Source: Escherichia coli
GTDB lineage: Bacteria > Pseudomonadota > Gammaproteobacteria > Enterobacterales > Enterobacteriaceae
NCBI RefSeq assembly: GCF_024700885.2
Contig: NZ_CP117016.1
DNA length: 64,000 bases
Reading direction: 5' to 3' (one strand)
The notes below the pieces were generated by a model. That model was not told where the DNA came from. It worked only from the letters and a program-made list of their open reading frames with translations, and did no database searches. The position numbers and the translations under genes are program-made. Of this stretch, positions 42-53,733 are shown in pieces (within the stretch, counting starts at the first letter, position 1; every line of letters begins with the position of its first letter).

Positions 42-1433
42 TCATTTCAACAACATCTCCAAAAACCGTTGCTCATCTTCAAGGCAGCGTAAATCCAGCC
101 ACAATCGTCCGTCATAAATACGACCAATCACCGGCACTGGCAATTCACGCCAGCGGGCGGCTAATGACTCAAGGTGGCTACCGCGTCCATCATGGGGTGT
201 AAACGTTAATGCCGCACTCGGCAGGCGATCAACCGGCAGCGAACCACTGCCAATCTGCGAAAGACATGGCATAACCTGTACCGCAAACTCCGCGCCGTAA
301 TGTGTGGCAAGGGGGGCCTGTAAACGTTGTGCCTGGATTTGAATGACCTCTGCGCTGCGGGTAAGCAGACGCAGGGTCGGTAATTTTTCACTCAGCGCCT
401 CAGGGTGTAAATAAAGACGCAGCGTGGCTTCCAGCGCCGCGAGGGTCATTTTATCCGCGCGTAATGCACGCTTCAGTGGATGGCTTTGCAGGCGGGCGAT
501 CATCTCTTTTTTACCAACAATAATTCCAGCCTGCGGCCCGCCTAACAACTTGTCGCCGGAGAAGCTCACCAGACTGACGCCCGCCGCAATCAACTCCTGC
601 GGCATTGGCTCTTTCGGCAAACCGAACTGGCTAAGATCGACCAGCGAGCCACTGCCTAAATCAGTCACTACGGGAACATCCAGCTCTTTGCCGAGCGCCA
701 CCAGTTCCGCTTCATCTATCGCTTTGGTGAATCCCTGAATGCTGTAGTTACTGGTGTGTACTTTCATCAACAGCGCGGTATTTTCATTCACCGCCTGACG
801 ATAATCATTAGCGTGCGTGCGGTTGGTGGTCCCCACTTCGTGTAGGGTGCAGCCTGCCTGACGCATGACATCAGGAATACGAAACGCGCCGCCAATCTCC
901 ACCAGTTCGCCGCGAGAAACCACCACCTCTTTCCCGCTGGCAGTGGCCGCCAACATCAATAACACCGCCGCCGCATTGTTATTAACGATACAGGCATCTT
1001 CCGCTCCCGTAATGCGGCACAGCAGCTGCGCCAGCGCCCGATCGCGATGTCCGCGTCCGGCGTCGTCCAGATCGTACTCGAGGGTCACTGGCGAACGCAT
1101 AGCCTGCGCAACGGCTTCCACCGCGGCTTCTGCCTGTAAAGCTCGCCCAAGATTGGTATGCAGCACGGTTCCCGTCAGGTTGATCACCGGACGCAGCGCG
1201 CTCTGCGCCTCCTTCGTCAGTCGGGCATCGACTTCTTGCGCCCAGTTTTCACACCATGCGGGCAGCGTCTGGCTGTCACGAATCACTTCTCGCGCTTCGT
1301 CAAGCATCTGACGCAGCAATTCCACTACGCGGGTGTGGCCATAAGTATCACGCAAAGAAAGGAAGGAGCTATCGCGCAATAAGCGATCAATAGCCGGAAG
1401 TTGACTATAGAGGGAACGCGTTTCGGTTGTCAT
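42..1433 (-). CDS. selA: L-seryl-tRNA(Sec) selenium transferase
   Basis: 463-aa ORF, N-terminus [19 protein letters not shown] matches recalled SelA; full length; gene order selA-yibF-rhsA. Confidence 0.93.
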
Positions 1434-1530
1434 AGGAAACCTGGCTGATCAAGGCCCTCTCACACGGAGAAGGGCGTTTAACATAACCACGGATTGTAAC
1501 GTGAGATGGGTCAGGAGGACATATCGCGCA

Positions 1531-2139
1531 TCAAGCCTTTGGCGGTTCGGTGCGAGCAAAACTTTCGCGGCTAAACAGGTTTTCGACCAGTTTGACTAAG
1601 TGTGGGCGGTCGACACACCAGCCTGGCGCAACGCGGCGGAAATTGAGATATCCGACGGCACAGGCAATGGCGATAGTCGCCAGATTGACCGTATCGGTTT
1701 TGAGCGTGCCATCGACCAGATATCCTTCCAGCACATCCAGACTGCGGTTGATTTTCTCCCGCTGGCGTAACAATTCATCTTCAGACTGCTGCGCCGCCGG
1801 ACGCGCCTGTTCACGCACCGATACCAGCCCGGCATCCATAATGCCATCCGCCAGCGCCTCAATTTTGCGCACCCGCAACGACTCCAGCGGATCGCGCGGC
1901 AACATCGCCGGAGCGACATTCATTAATTCAATATATTCAGCGATGATCGGCGAATCAAACCAACATTCGCCCTCTTCGGTCACCAGCACCGGCACTTTCC
2001 CTAACGGGTTAAATTGCGCCACGCCGTTGTCCGCGTTATAGGGCAGTTCATTAATAAATTCGAAAGTTATGCCCTTTTCTAACAACAGAATAGAAAGTTT
2101 GCGTACAAACGGGCTGGTGTAGCTACCGACGAGTTTCAT
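1531..2139 (-). CDS. yibF: glutathione S-transferase-like protein
   Basis: 202-aa ORF with GST-like N-terminus ([14 protein letters not shown]); position between selA and rhsA. Confidence 0.88.
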
Positions 2140-2367
2140 GCCGAGTCCTTTGTGCGAGGAAAAATATCAGTATGGCCTGGTGATGGGAAAAAGGGCAGAA
2201 AATGTTGATGGTTTGTTACTTCCCAATAAATCACATATTTATCATGGTGATATAAATATTTTCCTAATTGTTCTTATCTGACAGATATCTCACTTAAGGC
2301 TTTCTTATAAATCTGTAGGGTTTCGCCTGTCAGCAGACAAATAACCCGATAAAACAAGGATGAGCAG

Positions 2368-5300
2368 ATGAGCGGAAAACCGGCGGCGCGTCAGGGCGAC
2401 ATGACGCAGTATGGCGGTAGCATTGTTCAGGGTTCAGCCGGGGTACGTATTGGTGCCCCCACCGGCGTGGCCTGTTCGGTGTGCCCCGGCGGGGTGACGT
2501 CCGGCCATCCGGTCAATCCGCTGCTCGGTGCGAAGGTCCTTCCCGGCGAAACCGACCTTGCCCTGCCCGGCCCGCTGCCGTTCATCCTCTCCCGCACCTA
2601 CAGCAGTTACCGGACAAAAACGCCCGCGCCGGTGGGGAGCCTCGGCCCCGGCTGGAAAATGCCCGCGGATATCCGCTTACAGCTGCGCGATAACACACTG
2701 ATACTCAGTGATAACGGCGGCAGGAGCCTGTATTTTGAGCACCTGTTTCCCGGTGAGGACGGTTACAGCCGCAGCGAGTCACTCTGGCTGGTGCGCGGCG
2801 GCGTGGCGAAACTGGATGAAGGTCACCGGCTGGCCGCACTCTGGCAGGCACTGCCGGAAGAGCTTCGCCTGAGTCCGCATCGTTATCTGGCGACGAACAG
2901 TCCGCAGGGGCCGTGGTGGGTACTCGGCTGGTGTGAGCAGGTGCCGGAGGCGGATGAGGTGCTGCCCGCGCCGCTGCCGCCGTACCGGGTACTGACCGGG
3001 CTGGTGGACCGCTTCGGGCGCACACAGACGTTTCACCGTGAGGCTGGCGGCGAAATCACCGGCGTGACGGATGGCGCAGGCCGTCACTTCCGGCTGGTAC
3101 TGACCACGCAGGCGCAGCGGGCAGAAGAAGCCCGGCAGCAGGCCATTTCCGGCGGGACGGAACCGTCCGCTTTTCCTGATACCCTGCCGGGTTACACCGA
3201 ATATGGCCGGGACAACGGCATCCGTCTGTCTGCCGTGTGGCTGACACACGACCCGGAATATCCGGACAACCTGCCAGCCGCGCCGCTGGTACGCTATGGC
3301 TGGACGCCGCGTGGCGAACTGGCGGCGGTGTATGACCGCAGCAATACACAGGTGCGCAGCTTTACTTACGATGATAAATACCGGGGCCGGATGGTGGCGC
3401 ACCGTCACACGGGCCGACCGGAAATCCGTTACCGTTACGACAGTGACGGGCGGGTGACAGAACAGCTAAACCCGGCGGGCTTAAGCTACACGTATCAGTA
3501 TGAGAAAGACCGCATCACCATCACCGACAGCCTGGACCGCCGTGAAGTCCTGCACACGCAGGGCGAAGGCGGGCTGAAGCGGGTGGTGAAAAAGGAACAC
3601 GCGGACGGCAGCGTCATGCAGAGTCAGTTTGACGCGGTGGGCAGGCTTAAGGCACAGACGGATGCCGCAGGCCGGACGACTGAGTACAGCCCGGATGTGG
3701 TGACGGGACTCATCACGCGCATCACCACACCGGATGGCAGGGCATCGGCATTTTACTATAACCACCACAACCAGTTAACGTCAGCCACCGGGACTGACGG
3801 GCTGGAGTTGCGCCGGGAATATGATGAATCCGGCCGTCTGATTCAGGAAACCGCACACAACGGCGATATCACCCGCTACCGTTATGATAATCCACACAGT
3901 GACTTACCCTGCGCAACGGAAGATGCCACCGGCAGCCGGAAAACCATGACATGGAGCCGTTACGGTCAGTTGCTGACCGTCACTGACTGTTCCGGTTATG
4001 TAACCCGTTATGACCATGACCGTTTTGGTCAGGTGACGGCGGTGCACCGCGAGGAAGGGCTGAGTCAGTACCGCGCATACGACAGCCGTGGACAGTTAAT
4101 TGCGGTGAAAGACACGCAGGGCCATGAAACGCGGTATGAATACAACGCCGCCGGTGACCTGACCGCCGTCATTGCCCCGGACGGCAGCAGAAACGGGACA
4201 CAGTACGATGCGTGGGGAAAGGCCATCCGTACCACGCAGGGCGGTCTGACGCGCAGTATGGAATACGATGCTGCCGGACGGGTCATCCGCCTGACCAGTG
4301 AAAACGGCAGCCACACCACCTTCCGTTACGATGTACTTGACCGGCTGATACAGGAAACCGGCTTTGACGGCCGCACACAGCGTTATCACCACGACCTGAC
4401 CGGCAAACTTATCCGCAGCGAGGATGAGGGGCTGGTCACCCACTGGCACTATGACGAAGCAGACCGCATCACGCACCGCACCGTGAAGGGTGAACCGGCA
4501 GAGCAGTGGCAGTATGATGAACGCGGCTGGCTGACACAAATCAGCCATCTCAGCGAAGGCCACCGGGTGACGGTGCATTACGGGTATGATGAGAAAGGCC
4601 GCCTGACCGGTGAGCGCCAGACGGTGCATCACCCGCAGACGGAAGCACTGCTCTGGCAGCATGAAACCAGACACGCTTACAACGCGCAGGGACTGGCGAA
4701 CCGCTGTATACCGGACAGCCTGCCCGCCGTGGAATGGCTGACTTACGGCAGCGGCTGGCTGGCAGGCATGAAACTCGGCGACACACCGCTGGTGGAGTAT
4801 ACCCGCGACCGCCTGCACCGGGAAACGCTGCGCAGCTTCGGCCGTTATGAACTCACCACCGCTTATACCTCTGCCGGGCAGTTACAGAGCCAGCACCTGA
4901 ACAGCCTGCAGTATGACCGCGATTACACCTGGAACGACAACGGCGAACTCATCCGCATCAGCAGCCCGCGACAGACCCGGAGTTACAGCTACAGCGACTC
5001 CGGCAGGCTGACCGGCGTCCACACCACCACCTCAAATCTGGATATCCGCATCCCGTATGCCACGGACCCGGCAGGCAACCGCCTGCCCGACCCGGAGCTG
5101 CACCCGGACATCACCCTCAGCATGTGGCCGGATAACCGTATCGCCCGTGACGCGCACTATCTTTACCGGTATGACCGTCACGGCAGACTGACGGAGAAAA
5201 CCGACCTCATCCCGGAAGGGGTTATCCGCACGGACGATGAGCGGACTCACCAGTACCATTACGACAGTCAGCACCGGCTGGTGCACTACACGCGGACACA

Positions 5301-6555
5301 ATATGCAGAGCCGCTGGTCGAAAGTCGCTATCTTTACGACCCGCTGGGCCGCAGGGTGGCAAAACGGGTATGGCGGCGTGAACGGGACCTGACGGGCTGG
5401 ATGTCGCTGTCACGGAAACCGGAAGTGACCTGGTACGGCTGGGACGGCGACCGGCTGACCACGATACAGAACGACAGAACCCGCATCCAGACGGTTTATC
5501 AGCCGGGGAGCTTCACGCCACTCATCAGAGTTGAAACCGCCACCGGTGAGCTGGCGAAAACGCAGCGCCGCAGCCTGGCGGATGCGCTTCAGCAGTCCGG
5601 CGGCGAAGACGGTGGCAGTGTGGTGTTCCCGCCGGTGCTGGTGCAGATGCTCGACCGGCTGGAAAGTGAAATCCTGGCTGACCGGGTGAGTGAGGAAAGC
5701 CGCCGCTGGCTGGCATCGTGCGGCCTGACGGTGGAGCAGATACAAAACCAGATGGACCCGGTGTACACGCCGGCGCGAAAAATCCACCTGTACCACTGCG
5801 ACCATCGCGGCCTGCCGCTGGCGCTTGTCAGCACGGAAGGGGCAACAGAATGGTGCGCAGAATACGATGAATGGGGCAACCTGCTGAATGAAGAGAACCC
5901 GCACCAGCTGCAGCAGCTCATCCGCCTGCCGGGTCAGCAGTATGATGAGGAGTCAGGCCTGTATTACAACCGCCACCGCTATTATGACCCGCTGCAGGGG
6001 CGGTATATCACTCAGGATCCGATTGGGCTGAAGGGGGGATGGAATTTTTATCAGTATCCGTTAAATCCGGTTCAGTATATAGATTCAATGGGACTGGCAT
6101 CTAAATATGGACACTTAAATAATGGCGGATATGGAGCGAGACCCAACAAACCGCCTACGCCCGATCCAAGTAAGTTGCCAGACATAGCGAAACAATTAAG
6201 ACTGCCATATCCTATTGACCAGGCCAGTAGTGCGCCTAATGTTTTCAAAACATTCTTCAGAGCATTAAGTCCTTACGATTACACACTGTATTGCAGGAAG
6301 TGGGTAAAACCCAATCTGACTTGTACGCCGCAGGATGATCCCCAGTATCCAGGGATGGAGACAAAGACAGCAAGTGATTACCTGCCACAGACAACTTGGC
6401 CAACAACTCAATTACCACCAGGATATACTTGTGCAGAACCCTATTTATTCCCAGACATTAATAAACCCGATGGGCCAGCAACAGCAGGGATAGATGATTT
6501 GGGTGAAATTTTAGCTAAAATGAAACAGAGAACATCGAGAGGAATAAGAAAATGA
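2368..6555 (+). CDS. rhsA: Rhs polymorphic toxin: PAAR-like N-terminus, YD-repeat core, variable C-terminal toxin tip
   Basis: 1395-aa ORF; N-terminal [17 protein letters not shown] (PAAR-like); many YD/RYxYD repeats; core ends with the DPIGL motif near nt 6016-6030, followed by an AT-rich ~175-codon tip of unrecognised family. Confidence 0.93.
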
Positions 6556-7121
6556 AAAGAGCTTTGTTCTTTTTGCTGATGATATTCGTTAGTTTTGGTG
6601 TTATAGCTAATTGCGAAACACAAGCTAAAGATCAAGATTGCTTTACCATTTTCACTAAGGGTACTATTTTTTCCGCGTTTCCTGTCTTAAATAATAAAAC
6701 CATGTGGAGATGGTATCAGAATGAGGACATAGGTGAGTATTATTGGCAAACAGAGCTTGGTATATGTAAAAATAACAAATTCACACCAAGCGGGGCGAGA
6801 CTCTTAATTCTCGTCGGATCACTACGCCTTAATGAAAATCATGCAACCAAAGGAACGTTGCAGGAGTTGCTAAATACAGCAGAAAAAACGGCGTTTCTCG
6901 GCGATCGGTTTAGAAGTTATATAAGAGCGGGTATCTATCAAAAAAAGAGCAGTGATCCAGCTCAGTTGTTGGCAGTCCTTGATAATTCAATCATGGTTAA
7001 ATATTTTAAAGATGAGAAGCCAACTTATGCTCGAATGACAGCACATCTCCCGAACAAAGATGAGTCTTACGAATGTTTAACAAAAGTACAGCATGAACTG
7101 CTTCGTAGTGAAGAAAAATAA
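6552..7121 (+). CDS. putative cognate Rhs immunity protein, secreted (N-terminal signal peptide)
   Basis: start codon overlaps the rhsA stop (ATGA at 6552-6555); GAGG RBS about 10 nt upstream; N-terminus [21 protein letters not shown] is signal-peptide-like; AT-rich like the rhsA tip. Confidence 0.6.
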
Positions 7122-7289
7122 AATCTCTTCCTGAGAAAATAAATTAACTATTCGAAAAAATATGTTCTTAATGGGTATCCAGGAACACCAGAAGGTCGAT
7201 TTGGAAAAATGGATTCCGATGGTAAGAATATCATATATTCTGAATGTAATGTTTTACCCACAACTTTTGAGATTCGATAGGTGTAGAGC

Positions 7290-7637
7290 ATGAGAAACTC
7301 ACTAATATTACTTATTATGATATTGTTTACAATATCACACTCAGTATTTGGAAAAGAAAATTCAGCGGAAATTTTAGTAAATAGTCGTGAAATGGCTTTG
7401 GAATTATCATATGTTTATATTAAATATATATACGGGAAAGAAAAAGCAGAATTTCAGAAACCATATAGTATTACAGATGACAATAATTGTTGGAAAATCG
7501 AGGGAAAACAACCGAAGACGTTAGGAGGAAATTTTACAATACTAATAGCGAAAAAAGATGGGCAAGCGTTGGATGTAATACACAAAATAATCCACTGTTC
7601 AGACGATTCAAATATTTTACCAAGGTGTGTTTCGTAA
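7290..7637 (+). CDS. small secreted hypothetical protein, possible orphan immunity protein
   Basis: 115-aa ORF with signal-peptide-like N-terminus MRNSLILLIMILFTISHSVFG; has a frameshifted paralog at 9240-9507; sits in the Rhs-associated AT-rich region. Confidence 0.5.
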   Translation: MRNSLILLIMILFTISHSVFGKENSAEILVNSREMALELSYVYIKYIYGKEKAEFQKPYSITDDNNCWKIEGKQPKTLGGNFTILIAKKDGQALDVIHKIIHCSDDSNILPRCVS

Positions 7638-7839
7638 CTATTTTGTGTACAATATGACTCTACATATCGACGAAAAAACCACTTGATTTGACAGGAACAC
7701 ATTCAAAAAAATTTCTTTTTCATTTCAGGAGCGATTTTCATCTGTTACTTGAAGTATCTGTGAGATTAAGTGACTCCCCCTAACGTCGTACTAAATAGTA
7801 ATTACTGGCCATACCGGGAGCAGTATTCGGCGCTTCCCA

Positions 7840-8080
7840 CATGCAGCAGAATAACCGCATCAGCGAAGATGTATTGTATTTTTACTATCACAATGTGTAC
7901 GGACGGTTTATGGAAAAGAATGAACATTAGATACGCGATGCGGCGGCAGGTTACACGGTTATCACTACGATAGCCAATACTGGCTGGTGCATTACCGCCG
8001 TGAACAATAGGACGCCGTACTGCTGGAAATTTCTTACCTTTATGACTCCCCGCGCCGCCGTATTGGGAAACGGGAAGCAA
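7840..8080 (+). pseudogene. decayed internal fragment of an Rhs core
   Basis: aligns by eye to rhsA nt ~5130-5370 (e.g. relic GYHYDSQYWLVHY and YLYDSPRRRIGKR vs rhs[14 protein letters not shown] and [13 protein letters not shown]); interrupted by stop codons; GC-rich patch inside an AT-rich region. Confidence 0.6.
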
Positions 8081-8654
8081 TCAAGATGAGGCTGATATAA
8101 TGTGCGGAATGCCTGAGTATTTTTAGAATAGGGGGGTAATATGTTTGATAGAATATATCTTGGTGATCGAGCAATAAAAAATTGAATTTGATTTATGGAG
8201 TAAACAAATTAGAATTCAGGTTAATTTAATCTCAAGGATAGCCTATGGTACAACAGAATGGAATTTTTATGATAATGAAGACTTAGAAGATGGTTATTTG
8301 GTATTTTCAGATGTTAGTTTCTTCAATATAACTCCTAATGGCTCTATTCCAGATGATTATATAATTTCAATAATTACAGATAATGTCAATGTTGAATATT
8401 TTGAATCAACTATAGTTGCTGTTGGTCAAATTCGAAACACAAATGTTGGTGACATTGATAATATTGGTGAATGTCAAATTTTCATCAGGTATAAAGACAG
8501 CTGGATTGAGAATAAACTCAAAGAAAAAATAATTGAATAACCATGTTATGTATAGACATTTTAGATGGAACGAACCAGAGGAAGGCATGCCTCCGACTTG
8601 GGTTATATGGGCACGGAGTTTTAGTGTAGTGAACTCAACGACGCAAACCGAATA

Positions 8655-8720
8655 ACCTGCCGCTGGCGCTTATCAGCACGTAAGGGACAACAGCGTAGTA
8701 CGTAGAATAATCCTACCCAC
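8655..8720 (+). pseudogene. short decayed relic of the Rhs core 3' end
   Basis: cctgccgctggcgcttatcagcacg is near-identical to rhsA 5811-5835 and to the yibJ copy at ~10669-10693; similarity decays downstream and is interrupted by stops. Confidence 0.5.
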
Positions 8721-8792
8721 GTAGTATGGACACAGGCCTAAGCGAGGTTCTGGTTTTCAAATTTTTCGGGAGTTAGATGATTGGAGGAACAG

Positions 8793-9158
8793 ATGATAAG
8801 AATCGCATTTTTAATAACCAATAAATTTCTTGAGATAGATAGTACCACTCTTGCTGGATATGATTTTAGCGGGATGAATCTACATCGTGCCACCCTCAAT
8901 GGTTATTGTCTTGATGGGGCGAAATTTGAAAAAACTCATTTAAGAAATGTAATGATTCAACATACATCAACTAGAAATGCTGTCTTTCGCAATGCGGCTC
9001 TGATGAATGCTATTCTGAATAACTCAGATTTCACTGGAAGTGATTGTAGTAATTCAAGGTCAATAGGTGAAAATTTTAAAGCAATAGATAATCATGGGAA
9101 AGATATAATAAATGGAAAAGGATTGCCTAATGTTTGCAAAATACATGACAACGTATAA
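8793..9158 (+). CDS. pentapeptide-repeat protein, hypothetical
   Basis: ORF with GGAGG RBS 5 nt upstream of ATG 8793 (the track ORF begins at an in-frame TTG at 8781); sequence shows pentapeptide-like periodicity (GMNLHRATLNGYCLDGAKFEKTHLRNV...AVFRNAALMNAILNNSDFTGSD). Confidence 0.5.
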   Translation: MIRIAFLITNKFLEIDSTTLAGYDFSGMNLHRATLNGYCLDGAKFEKTHLRNVMIQHTSTRNAVFRNAALMNAILNNSDFTGSDCSNSRSIGENFKAIDNHGKDIINGKGLPNVCKIHDNV

Positions 9159-9239
9159 GAAAATATTATTCAGAACCTATGTGATTGTATCTTTATTTTT
9201 ACATACAACACATGGGCGCAGTGTAATAATATTATTATA

Positions 9240-9507
9240 ATGCGCAAGTATGAAAGTGAGGGGAAATACACCGTTAGAAATTTGGTCAAAAATAAAGCTA
9301 TAGCATTGGAATTAGCTGAGATGTATGTTAAAAATCGTTATGGACATGATGCCGAAGAAGAAAAAAAAACCATACAAAATCATGGAATTACCAACAAGTT
9401 GGATTGTTGAAGGCACCATTGAATCAGACCAAATTGCTGGTAGGGTTTTTATTATAGAAATAGGCAAAAATGACGGGAGAATTCTAAATTTTGGCCACGG
9501 AAAATAA
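9240..9507 (+). pseudogene. frameshifted paralog of the 7290-7637 gene, interrupted in an A9 homopolymer
   Basis: frame A (9240-9410, MRKYESEGKYTVRNLVKNKAIALELAEMYVKNRYGHDAEEEKK) and frame B (9325-9507, ...PYKIMELPTSWIVEGTIESDQIAGRVFIIEIGKNDGRILNFGHGK) together align with the 7290 protein (SREMALELSYVYIKYIYGKEKAEFQKPYSITDDNNCWKIEG...ILIAKKDGQALDVIHKI); the frames meet at the A9 run 9361-9369; losing one A restores one ORF. Confidence 0.6.
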
Positions 9508-9611
9508 GTATGTAAGGATAAACAAACATCGTGTGTGCTGATGGCAGAGTAGGTGGAGGACTCCAGACAGTCAAACGATAGAAAAAGATAGTCTTTATGG
9601 AGGTTCCTGCA

Positions 9612-10454
9612 ATGTCGAATACATACCAGAAAAGAAAGGCAAGTAAAGAGTATGGTTTATACAATCAATGTAAGAAACTAAATGATGATGAATTATTTCG
9701 CTTACTTGATAATCGCAATTCATTGAAAAGGATTTCATCTGCCAGAGTATTGCAGCTAAGAGGTGGGCAAGACGCTGTTAGATTGGCAATTGAATTCTGC
9801 GCTGACAAAAATTATATCCGTAGAGATATAGGAGCATTTATACTCGGGCAAATAAAAGTTTGCAAAAAATGCGAAGATAGCGTTTTTAATATTTTAAAAA
9901 AGATGGCACTGAATGATAAAAGTGCTTGCGTTCGAGCTACAGCAATCGAGTCAACTGCTCAGCGATGCAAGAAAAACCCAATTTATTCACCTAAAATAGT
10001 AGAACAATCTCAAATTACTGCTTTTGATAAATCGGCTAATGTCAGACGTGCTACGGCATTTGCTATTTCTGTTATCAATGATAAAGAAACAATTCCACTA
10101 TTGATTAATCTGTTAAAAGATCCAAATGGAGATGTCAGAAACTGGGCCGCATTTGCAATAAATATCAATAAATATGATAATAGTGATATTAGGGATTATT
10201 TTGTGGAGATGCTTCAGGATAAAAATGAGGAAGTCCGTATTGAAGCAATAATCGGACTTTCCTACAGAAAAGATAAAAGGGTTTTATCTGTTTTATGCGA
10301 TGAGTTAAAAAAAAATACTGTTTATGATGATATCATTGAAGCTGCGGGTGAATTAGGTGATAAAACGCTACTTCCTGTTTTAGATACTATGTTGTACAAG
10401 TTTGATGACAATGAAATTATAACTTCCGTTATTGATAAGCTGAAGCGTTCATAG
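9612..10454 (+). CDS. yibA: HEAT-repeat protein
   Basis: N-terminus MSNTYQKRKASKEYGLYNQ at the internal ATG 9612 matches recalled YibA; repeated D/N-x-x-VR-x-x-A HEAT-like units; lies between Rhs modules. Confidence 0.8.
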   Translation: MSNTYQKRKASKEYGLYNQCKKLNDDELFRLLDNRNSLKRISSARVLQLRGGQDAVRLAIEFCADKNYIRRDIGAFILGQIKVCKKCEDSVFNILKKMALNDKSACVRATAIESTAQRCKKNPIYSPKIVEQSQITAFDKSANVRRATAFAISVINDKETIPLLINLLKDPNGDVRNWAAFAININKYDNSDIRDYFVEMLQDKNEEVRIEAIIGLSYRKDKRVLSVLCDELKKNTVYDDIIEAAGELGDKTLLPVLDTMLYKFDDNEIITSVIDKLKRS

Positions 10455-10495
10455 CGTGAGTTGCCTATGCACAGTGAGGTATTCCCGCCGGCACG

Positions 10496-11305
10496 GTGCA
10501 GATGCTCGACCGGCTGGAAAGTGAAATCCTGGCTGACCGGGTGAGTGAGGAAAGCCGACGCTGGCTGGCATCGTGCGGCCTGACGGTGGCGCAGATGCAA
10601 AACCAGATGGACCCGGTGTACACGCCGGCGCGAAAAATCCACCTGTACCACTGCGACCATCGCGGCCTGCCGCTGGTGCTTATCAGCACGGAAGGGGCAA
10701 CAGAATGGTGCGCAGAATACGATGAGTGGGGCAACCTGCTGAATGAAGAGAACCCGCACCAGCTGCAGGGGCGGTATATCACTCAGGATCCGATTGGACT
10801 GAAGGGGGGATGGAATTTTTATCAGTATCCGTTGAATCCGATAACTGATATTGACCCGTTGGGATTAGCGACCTGTTTATACAGCATAACTTTAGGTATG
10901 CTTTCATGCGTTTCAGATACGCCAAGTGATGATAATTCTTATGGTGTGCTTACTATTTCAGTCGCCTCTGGTAATAATGGTAATAATATGCAATGTAAAA
11001 ATAATCCTGGTTGTACACACTTACAAAATAGAGGCCCAATACCTCCAGGGGTATGGAGCTGGAATGTTAATGGTCCTGGAGCAACTAATAGAAAACCTAA
11101 TGGTATACGTTTAGTACCGTCAGCAAATACAGAAACGTATAATCGTGATGGATTTTTAACACATAGTTGTTTAAACGCTTTTGGTCCATCTTTAGGACCT
11201 CGATTCTGTTCCGAGGGTTGTATAACTGGTTCATCTAATGACATGCAAAAATTAAATGAGCTAATATTTTCAGAGCCAGATAGCACATTAACAGTGACGG
11301 ACTAG
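10496..11305 (+). CDS. yibJ: orphan Rhs C-terminal fragment (3' core plus alternative toxin tip) with L,D-transpeptidase-like motif
   Basis: nt ~10472-10840 are near-identical to the rhsA 3' core (5616-6070) including [18 protein letters not shown]; the tip then diverges; tip contains H-S-x14-S-E-G-C-I-T (His codon 11162-11164, Cys codon 11219-11221); symbol is positional only. Confidence 0.7.
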
Positions 11306-11309
11306 AAAT

Positions 11310-11705
11310 ATGGCAAGGTTATTAACAATTGTGCTTTTTTTCTCTATTTCTGCGAATGCAGTTACTGTAAACCAATTTCAGAGAGAGTTGGATTTGGCAG
11401 ACAAGGCAATATTATGGGCACTAATATCAGCCAGTACCCAAGAGGGACGAAAAGCGTGTTCACTTAGCTATTTTTCATGTAAAGCCGCAGAGGCTGAACT
11501 CGGACTGGCATATATGGCTGCTAATGATAACAAGGCATTTCTCACATCCTTATCTAGAATAATGATGTACAAAATAGATGCTGGACTTTCCGAATCCTAT
11601 ACATGCTATTTATTAAGCAAGGGAAAGATCATAAGACCATATCTGAAGAATCTAAATCCACACCAACTTGTCGCTGATTGCATTGAAACTGTAAATAAAA
11701 GATAA
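11310..11705 (+). CDS. putative immunity protein for the orphan Rhs tip, secreted
   Basis: starts 4 nt after the yibJ stop; N-terminus MARLLTIVLFFSISANA is signal-peptide-like; AT-rich. Confidence 0.55.
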   Translation: MARLLTIVLFFSISANAVTVNQFQRELDLADKAILWALISASTQEGRKACSLSYFSCKAAEAELGLAYMAANDNKAFLTSLSRIMMYKIDAGLSESYTCYLLSKGKIIRPYLKNLNPHQLVADCIETVNKR

Positions 11706-12283
11706 AAATAAAAAAATCATTGATATAGATTCAGTTAATATTTGCAATGATAATAAAAATATAAATTGGAGAGTTAATAGTACTATTGTAGCCATTGATG
11801 ATTCTATAAAATGCATCGATGAATAATAACTTAATTATATTTAAAAATATATTAATGACTCACTCTCCAGGAGTTTTTTAACTTAGTGTTATAATGAATA
11901 CGATAATTAAAAGTGAAGAGAAAAATAGTTGTATACATATATTACATGAACCTACATTGTGATCTATAAATTAAATATTTTTAAATGTGACTGTCATCCT
12001 TCAGATAATAAAGCCATCATCGCAATAGATGGAAAAGCACTCCTGCTCTTTTTTGATTAGAGCCGTGGCAGAGGAACAACTCATATCATCATTGCGATCT
12101 CGACAATGTATGGTCTGATCCTTCGGCAGATCAAGACGGATAAAAAATCCAATGAGTTCACACTCATCCCGAACTTCTTAACATAATGGATATTAACGAA
12201 AAATCATCGCAGCCAATGAAGTAATATGCAAAAATAATTAGTCCTTACAGGGAGCAAAGTTCCATAATCTCCCCCTTCCCTAC

Positions 12284-53370: not shown

Positions 53371-53382
53371 CACGCTACCGCC
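53371..53382 (-). promoter_or_regulatory. ops element (RfaH recruitment site) in the waaQ operon leader
   Basis: plus strand cacgctaccgcc is the reverse complement of GGCGGTAGCGTG, about 50 nt upstream of the waaQ start on the minus strand. Confidence 0.75.
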
Positions 53383-53733
53383 CCAGGCTCAACAGCTACC
53401 TGAATACTGATACCGCACTGATATTGACGCGCTAGTGTATCACTTCTTTCGCGGCAATCCGACCCGAATGATTTTTAAGCACATTGTTGATTTTCAATAA
53501 AGAAATCAATCAAATAAAATCATTAGCAACCATATTCTTTCACTGTTGCTCTGCGATTCCTTCCTGCACGTACTGCAGAAATCAATGAATCGCATAAAAA
53601 TACAAAAAAAGTATAGATGTTCAGCAAGAATTGGCGGGTAAATTGCTATTTAAGTCAAAAACGGGAAAAGTAATGGTAAAGCCACAGCTAAATACATAGA
53701 ATCCCCAGCACATCCATAAGTCAGCTATTTACT

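Follow-up and report, generated by a model that had tools for sequence, protein, structure and literature searches.

In a 64,000-nt stretch of Escherichia coli DNA, hereafter the window, the ~2.5 kb interval between positions 7122 and 9600, which the gene order of the window places at the E. coli rhsA locus, is very probably a graveyard of displaced Rhs toxin/immunity cassettes. This reading is carried by four successive units, each composed of the 3′ stub of a toxin and a gene in the position of an immunity gene (7143-7637, 8069-8540, 9072-9507 and 9560-10454), accompanied by two scraps of Rhs core, a 62-bp end of an IS3 element and a truncated pentapeptide-repeat gene. Every unit lies on the plus strand, downstream of the full-length rhs gene. 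The gene that follows each stub (starts at 7290, 8141, 9130 and 9612) is found at ~20 nt or less from it, or overlapping it, and these genes belong to the Imm-NTF2-2, DUF6258 and Imm-HEAT families. The features, in order, are as follows.

2368-6555, plus strand: full-length rhs gene (rhsA)
6552-7121, plus strand: YbfC-type gene, 189 aa, left border, just outside the interval
7143-7280, plus strand: 3′ stub of a DUF4329/Tox-JAB-2 Rhs toxin tip, last 45 codons and stop
7290-7637, plus strand: orphan Imm-NTF2-2 immunity gene, 115 aa, open frame (Pfam PF15631, E 1.1e-17)
7841-8073 (233 nt), plus strand: Rhs core relic 1, equivalent to about RhsA residues 919-1000, decayed, 47% guanine plus cytosine (GC)
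8069-8126, plus strand: 3′ stub of an unnamed toxin from an Rhs C-terminal region (Rhs-CT), last 18 codons and stop, abutting relic 1
8141-8540, plus strand: DUF6258 gene in the rhsI (immunity) position, frame broken (Pfam PF19772, E 3e-19)
8656-8709 (54 nt), plus strand: Rhs core relic 2, 85-89% DNA identity to rhs cores (E 1.6e-12)
8710-8771, no strand given: ~62 bp from one end of an IS3 element; thousands of records contain annotated IS3 copies whose ends match it with 93-95% identity
8793-9071, plus strand: 5′ fragment of a pentapeptide-repeat gene, ~91 of ~160 codons, plus a GGAGG ribosome-binding site of its own
9072-9158, plus strand: 3′ stub of an RhsB-type DUF4329 toxin tip, last 28 codons and stop, 75% amino acid identity to the K-12 RhsB end (E 6e-14)
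9130-9507, plus strand: yhhH homolog (Imm-NTF2-2), pseudogene, from alignment to K-12 yhhH
9560-9591, plus strand: 32-nt RhsA-CT 3′ remnant (K-12 type, polymorphic toxin type 34), just upstream of yibA
9612-10454, plus strand: yibA, HEAT-repeat immunity protein (Imm-HEAT), intact (NCBIfam PRK09687, E 6.6e-137), right border

A first-pass annotation of the window, made from the letters and a list of open reading frames (ORFs), had described the interval as AT-rich and as holding two decayed relics of Rhs cores, and had named Pfam as a way to look for immunity-type folds. These points were all borne out: GC content was 35.4% in 7122-9600 against 61.6% in the rhsA core and 49.1% in the whole window, both relics aligned with Rhs cores, and the two immunity-position families were returned by Pfam with the values listed. 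The DUF6258 gene (8141-8540), the IS3 end (8710-8771) and the four short toxin 3′ stubs had been missed at that stage. In the RefSeq strain MLI114, which is identical across the interval, the NCBI prokaryotic genome annotation pipeline (PGAP) places two 'NTF2 fold immunity protein' genes, one of them frameshifted, one 'DUF6258 family protein' and two 'pentapeptide repeat-containing protein' fragments.

The low GC content and the several ORFs of the interval that have no NCBIfam match could also be accommodated by an unrelated horizontally acquired island, or by chance ORFs in an AT-rich spacer. This explanation is hardly credible, given that Rhs cores, the toxin tails of Rhs proteins and immunity families were all matched significantly; moreover, a search for anti-phage defence families returned no match and the Rfam scan returned none inside the interval. 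A second alternative would see in the interval a silent store of cassettes, in which orphan toxin tips are kept for recombining onto an rhs core and so for switching toxins. Relics 1 and 2 do precede some of the units with core homology, and recombination of a tip onto the core was demonstrated for orphan Rhs of Salmonella (Koskiniemi et al. 2014, PMC3967940). However, neither a complete CT toxin coding region nor a DPxGL motif was found within 7122-9600, where only 3′ stubs of 32-138 nt survive, and the core scraps measure 54 and 233 nt, one of them decayed, which leaves this alternative very improbable.

Toxin stubs, immunity genes and core relics

The stub of the first unit (7143-7280) was 93% identical at the amino acid level (E 1.5e-26) to the C-terminus of an E. 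coli Rhs ORF of 756 aa, truncated by the end of its contig and composed of a core and a DUF4329 tip (comparison locus L018), and window 7143-7691 matched L018 2134-2684 with 90.9% DNA identity. A tblastn search of K-12 RhsB-CT against 7122-7290 had missed this stub, which was later confirmed by the L018 Rhs-DUF4329 gene, and the Pfam DUF4329 model matched it weakly (E 0.19, model positions 86-111 of 116). The product of the following gene (7290-7637) matched PF15631 over model positions 1-67 of 68, and PGAP names it 'NTF2 fold immunity protein'. A relative 84% identical to this product starts 9 nt after the L018 Rhs ORF with its DUF4329 tip; in the window, the toxin neighbour of the gene is reduced to the 45-codon tail. 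The first-pass annotation had taken 7290-7637 for a small secreted-protein gene; the ORF exists and its N-terminus MRNSLILLIMILFTISHSVFG, read by eye from the sequence, resembles a signal peptide, but its identity is that of an orphan Imm-NTF2-2 immunity gene.

In comparison with both E. coli B and the toxin-linked copy, a 2-nt deletion after position 7579 has converted the ancestral ...TK* end of this gene into a 17-residue tail, and in the E. coli B copy the start codon is gone. Between orphan copies, 5 non-synonymous and 1 synonymous substitutions were counted (omega ~1.3, with low power at six substitutions), so that these small numbers give no sign of selection holding the gene. Judging from the reading frames, it is the only one of the three immunity genes in 7122-9600 that could still yield a protein. 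Solved-structure relatives were sought for this protein and for DUF6258, and none was convincing.

The second unit is best understood from strain ETEC4067, in which window 8069-8709 finds a counterpart of 96.6% identity (L008 8001-8642). There, the segment corresponding to the stub 8069-8126 closes an orphan Rhs-CT ORF of 300 aa (L008 7156-8058), whose ~190 residues after DPLGL contained no Pfam toxin domain, and an intact 130-aa DUF6258 gene is found 15 nt after the stop of this orphan Rhs-CT (whole module L008 7156-8465), an arrangement repeated in many other strains (L024-L029). Since DUF6258 stands in the immunity position behind an Rhs-CT without a Pfam domain, the two can be annotated as a candidate, uncharacterised toxin/immunity pair, a proposal based on gene arrangement; DUF6258 was not mentioned in the searchable papers. 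A poly-A tract near 8176 counts six residues in the window (A6), where intact copies have A8, E. coli B has A7 and a metagenomic contig has A5, and the window frame breaks after about codon 12 because two nucleotides are gone from this tract. PGAP rescues the window gene with a non-canonical start at 8181. The tract, at 8165-8185, is a hot spot of slippage, which accounts for the differing PGAP starts of DUF6258.

In the third unit, the stub of the RhsB-type tip overlaps a yhhH homolog that PGAP labels 'NTF2 fold immunity protein, frameshifted'. In relation to K-12 yhhH, this homolog carries indels of -4, -3 and +1, two of which shift the frame; the +1 falls in an A9 run that is not found in the copies at the rhsB locus. 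K-12 YhhH is 42% identical (E 1.3e-14) to the product of 7290-7637, which agrees with the earlier description of 9130-9507 as a frameshifted paralog. The fourth unit pairs the RhsA-CT remnant with yibA. This orphan immunity gene is maintained and is directed against the Ntox34 RhsA tip, a tip found in 32% of E. coli genomes. In the catalogue of Zhang et al. 2012 (PMC3482391), Ntox34 is paired with Imm-HEAT and Tox-JAB-2 (DUF4329) with Imm-NTF2-2, and the neutralisation of the RhsA C-terminal region by yibA is credited to Hill and colleagues in Poole et al. 2011 (PMC3150448); among the units, this is the one pair whose neutralisation is backed by the literature.

Between these units lie the core scraps. 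With the window RhsA as a tblastn query, relic 1 was recovered as two segments, 57% identical over 42 aa and 39% over 28 aa (linked E 7.6e-11), interrupted by one frameshift and one in-frame stop. It is present, unannotated, in 845 of the 5426 complete E. coli genomes to which all genome counts given here refer. Searches for its parent returned only relic 1 itself, in those 845 genomes, by distant blastn against E. coli genomes, and a single 55-aa ORF at the protein level. Relic 2 preserves 54 nt from the start of a core-homology segment that belongs to another orphan module, and the IS3 end cuts it off there; in ETEC4067 the same segment runs on as a 285-nt RHS core fragment.

The toxins have been cut to stubs but the immunity reading frames are retained, all on the rhsA strand, and this pattern might be produced by a working multi-immunity array, in which orphan immunity genes read through from rhsA would shield the cell against the Rhs toxins of other E. 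coli. Such an array would be favoured by the absence of terminator-like sites between 6400 and 10600, by the Imm-NTF2-2 frame, open with a start codon and an entire Pfam domain, and by yibA, for which the ratio of non-synonymous to synonymous substitution rates (dN/dS) against K-12 is 0.17 and whose cognate Ntox34 tip is common (1741 genomes); a model of retention has also been published for type VI secretion (T6SS) in Vibrio cholerae (PMC5361080), and protection of this kind has been proposed for the T6SS immunity arrays there. Nevertheless, this alternative is considered unlikely, because two of the three immunity genes in 7122-9600 are frameshifted, the third bears a 3′ frameshift in the window and, in E. 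coli B, no longer possesses a start codon, the substitutions counted between its orphan copies point away from constraint within their small numbers, and promoter-like sites were no more frequent in the scan than expected by chance. A more elaborate form, to which we give a somewhat smaller chance, would have the array alive, with rhsA read-through expressing Imm-NTF2-2, the DUF6258 poly-A tract (A5-A8 across strains) acting as a slippage switch, and the toxin stubs kept because they supply the ribosome-binding and coupling signals of the immunity genes. If this were true, the cell would retain a cheap protection, switchable in part, from the Tox-JAB-2 and unnamed Rhs toxins that other E. coli produce.

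The IS3 end and the pentapeptide/RhsB chimera

The IS3 remnant at 8710-8771 is oriented with its outer end toward relic 2, and the remainder of the element has been deleted. In E. coli SE11, the match to this remnant falls at the element boundary, past the 3′ end of the transposase gene. What is left in the window is one terminal stretch, of an element that in its complete form comprises both ends and the transposase gene. A separate insertion was observed in strain ESBLEC_MG32, one of the two carriers at ~97.6% identity that were inspected, in which a 1331-bp IS3-family element (L007 7670-9000, rhsB locus) is inserted at the equivalent of window 8783-8787. The pentapeptide fragment has its GGAGG ribosome-binding site at exactly this place, ~12 bp away from the older IS3 remnant, and the 5-bp overlap at the insertion resembles a target-site duplication.

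The following ORF, read from the ORF list as 8781/8793-9158, had been described as a pentapeptide-repeat ORF. The ORF does exist, but it is a fusion artefact of two truncated genes, a chimera in which the 5′ fragment of the pentapeptide-repeat gene joins the RhsB-CT tail in frame. For the 5′ fragment, all NCBIfam matches were far below the curated cut-offs; Pfam PF00805 and PF13599 are assigned to an identical database ORF. Only ~91 of the ~160 residues of a full-length repeat domain (PF00805) are present, PGAP annotates the fragment as 'missing C-terminus', and the alignment with intact relatives, which measure 160-161 aa and are 44-56% identical, is confined to residues 1-91 of the ORF and the first 90 residues of the 160-aa stand-alone proteins. 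A word-indexed protein search for the parent returned only the same chimeric ORF, and an exhaustive search of representatives yielded three true relatives, 108-161 aa long. It follows that the 'pentapeptide repeat' ORF of this locus is not to be treated as a gene.

It was also considered whether the pentapeptide piece is itself a displaced immunity gene. The relatives (108-161 aa; L009-L016) are lone genes of other enterobacteria, located near fdhD/azlCD or between yoaH and yoaC beside pabB, and no toxin neighbour was found for the intact ones in these neighbourhoods (fdhD/azlCD and pabB-yoaH). Because the intact relatives have no toxin neighbour, the piece cannot be called a displaced immunity gene, and that candidate assignment was set aside as unsupported. 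Its position 22 nt from the IS3 remnant suggests that it may be DNA brought alongside by an IS3 insertion and a later deletion.

A mosaic array shared by several rhs loci

Blastn comparisons divided the region among several sources. Window 185-6092 was 96.3% identical to the K-12 rhsA locus; window 5050-8709 was 96.9% identical to the ybfO/ybfC orphan module of the E. coli B rhsC locus with its downstream array; window 9072-9958 was 91.2% identical to K-12 rhsB-yhhH-yrhC, the right end of the interval standing at 89-91% overall; and window 9560-10768 was 96.1% identical to the K-12 rhsA tail-yibA-yibJ (L005 6285-7493, the K-12 rhsA stop being at L005 6316). The left 1.6 kb (7126-8709) is found downstream of ybfC at the rhsC locus in both E. 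coli B and O157:H7. Since the left 1.6 kb matches rhsC-type arrays and the right 0.5 kb rhsB-type arrays, the interval is a mosaic, joined through the IS3 scar and the pentapeptide fragment.

The first-pass annotation had placed yibA directly after rhsA in K-12, and this was found to be so: the two genes are 20 nt apart, and 1741 of the 5426 genomes have this K-12-type junction. In ~1400 further genomes, yibA is preceded just by the same 32-nt RhsA-CT stub, with the same breakpoint. The accompanying suggestion that the content of the interval is strain-specific was overstated, inasmuch as the whole array occurs in 272 genomes, probably for the most part at the rhsB locus, the Imm-NTF2-2 unit in 847, and some part of the interval in 3820. 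About 37 of the complete copies are at least 99% identical. Two carriers at ~97.6% identity were inspected, and in both the array was located at the rhsB locus, between nikR and yhhJ; the map positions in the match lists suggest the same location for the remaining ~97.6% copies.

This distribution bears on how the debris came to lie at rhsA. The first-pass annotation had seen the interval as the residue of successive tip displacements, and the core scraps, toxin stubs and immunity families, co-oriented after rhsA, sustain the displacement part of this view. A stepwise accumulation in place at rhsA, particular to one strain, would fit the location directly after rhsA and its immunity gene, the lack of the array at that place in K-12, and the mere ~37 records that hold a copy at 99% identity or above. 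It is, however, improbable, since the same order of parts with the same breakpoints is found at the rhsB locus, the left 1.6 kb is found at the rhsC locus, and the right end is native to the K-12 rhsB locus. With the same array at rhsB and its left 1.6 kb at rhsC, the interval looks like a pre-assembled block that moved between rhs loci by recombination. That the breakpoints are identical at three loci speaks for ancestral events that each took place once, with what would be block transfer between rhs loci coming after them, and, as far as these alignments indicate, the debris was probably not built up step by step at rhsA.

Proposed course of events

From the homologies, breakpoints, lesions and distribution described above, we infer the following course for the graveyard of displaced cassettes. 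An incoming rhs-CT/rhsI cassette would recombine into an rhs gene, using core homology at its left side and joining illegitimately at its right; the latter join would leave just a short 3′ stub of the resident toxin tip and push the old immunity gene downstream. Repeated displacement of this kind would have left the remaining units, namely Tox-JAB-2/Imm-NTF2-2 twice, the unnamed CT with DUF6258, and Ntox34/YibA, with two core scraps between them. An IS3 insertion and a subsequent deletion would then have joined one core scrap to the truncated pentapeptide-repeat gene, and poly-A slippage would have frameshifted DUF6258 and the yhhH homolog. The composite was probably assembled away from rhsA, out of an rhsC-type array and an rhsB-type array, and would most likely have arrived at rhsA as a block, through homologous recombination between rhs cores that are nearly identical and between shared yibA/yibJ sequences.

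Some observations weigh against this account. Relic 1 is only ~52-57% identical to both E. coli Rhs clades tested (~52% to the second clade, which is no better than to RhsA) and no closer parent was found, although Jackson et al. (PMC2935791) reported that the core fragments at a locus share the clade of the resident gene. The toxin-free neighbourhoods of the pentapeptide relatives mean that this piece may be unrelated DNA and not a displaced cassette. The locus was inspected in 2 of the ~235 copies at ~97.6% identity, the others being located from map positions.

Borders and neighbouring genes

The first genes of the window, selA and yibF, lie on the minus strand and are followed by rhsA; to the right of the interval come yibA, an orphan rhs fragment, yibH, yibI and mtlA. 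On the left border, the YbfC-type gene is presumed to be the cognate immunity gene of the rhsA tip of this strain, with a dN/dS of 0.26 relative to its E. coli B counterpart; together with the rhsA tip, this gene upstream of the interval would form the active pair.

After yibA, an orphan module (10496-11826) consists of a fragment of Rhs core end fused to a tip with a Tlde1 domain (10496-11305), and then a frameshifted Imm57 gene. The window has no counterpart of positions 7494-8721 of the K-12 rhsA locus, which hold the yibJ tip and yibG, and the homologies flanking this missing segment share 7 nt at 10762-10768. Between the Imm57 pseudogene and yibH, GC falls to 22-26% (11550-12000), and 11987-12211 showed 78% matches to sequences adjoining ISAs1/H-repeat elements at other rhs loci. 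Farther along the window, a JUMPstart RNA element was detected on the minus strand at 53371-53409 (Rfam RF01707, 55 bits), which presumably marks the leader of the lipopolysaccharide core (waa) operon.

Relation to known rhs and immunity gene arrays

The feature is ordinary for E. coli, and it has already been explained in the literature and annotated by RefSeq. The locus is nonetheless a clean worked example of how the replacement of an Rhs tip drops the old toxin while a few of its codons stay behind in front of the immunity gene. It also illustrates the probable movement of whole arrays among rhsA, rhsB and rhsC, and has little significance beyond annotation.

The K-12 regions rhsB-yhhH-yrhC and rhsA-yibA display the same pairings, Tox-JAB-2/Imm-NTF2-2 and Ntox34/Imm-HEAT. 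They differ from the window in that the window toxins are cut to 28 codons and 32 nt, respectively, and the window yhhH is frameshifted; conversely, yibA is whole in the window and survives at the K-12 rhsB locus just as the fragment yrhC. A further likeness is offered by the orphan array of the rhsC locus (rhsC-ybfB-ybfO-ybfC and the genes that follow) in E. coli B, ATCC 8739 and O157:H7, with which 3.66 kb are contiguous at 96.9% identity and share identical breakpoints across the ybfO-type tip, ybfC, the DUF4329 stub, Imm-NTF2-2, relic 1, DUF6258 and relic 2. In the window, however, it is a full-length rhs gene of the rhsA locus that bears the ybfO-type tip, and relic 2 is followed by the IS3 end, whereas ISEc1 follows it in the rhsC-locus array. 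The lesions are also different, E. coli B having lost the start codon of its Imm-NTF2-2 gene and carrying the A7 tract, and the window carrying the 2-nt 3′ deletion and A6.

Jackson et al. 2009 (PMC2935791) described how C-terminal displacement leaves dissociated rhs tips. As in that description, core fragments and AT-rich tips are strung after an intact rhs gene, and the tips are common to several loci and strains. Unlike it, the tips of the window are almost wholly deleted, with immunity genes and short toxin tails remaining, and relic 1 is far more divergent from the resident core than the displacement model expects. The orphan rhs-CT/rhsI modules treated in Poole et al. 2011 (PMC3150448) and Koskiniemi et al. 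2014 (PMC3967940) agree with the units of the interval in position, orientation and pairing logic, as does the intact orphan Rhs-CT and DUF6258 module of ETEC4067; the units of the interval differ in having no usable toxin, being orphan immunity genes or pseudogenes.

Finally, Kirchberger et al. 2017 (PMC5361080) reported that incoming effector-immunity modules remove the old effector and keep its immunity gene, may leave the 3′ end of the effector behind, and in this way make arrays grow. The T6SS orphan immunity arrays of V. cholerae resemble the present interval in that the old effector is lost and the immunity gene, sometimes with the 3′ end of the effector, is kept. They differ from it in that the interval is built on an Rhs scaffold and not on auxiliary-cluster effectors, and most of its immunity genes have been inactivated.

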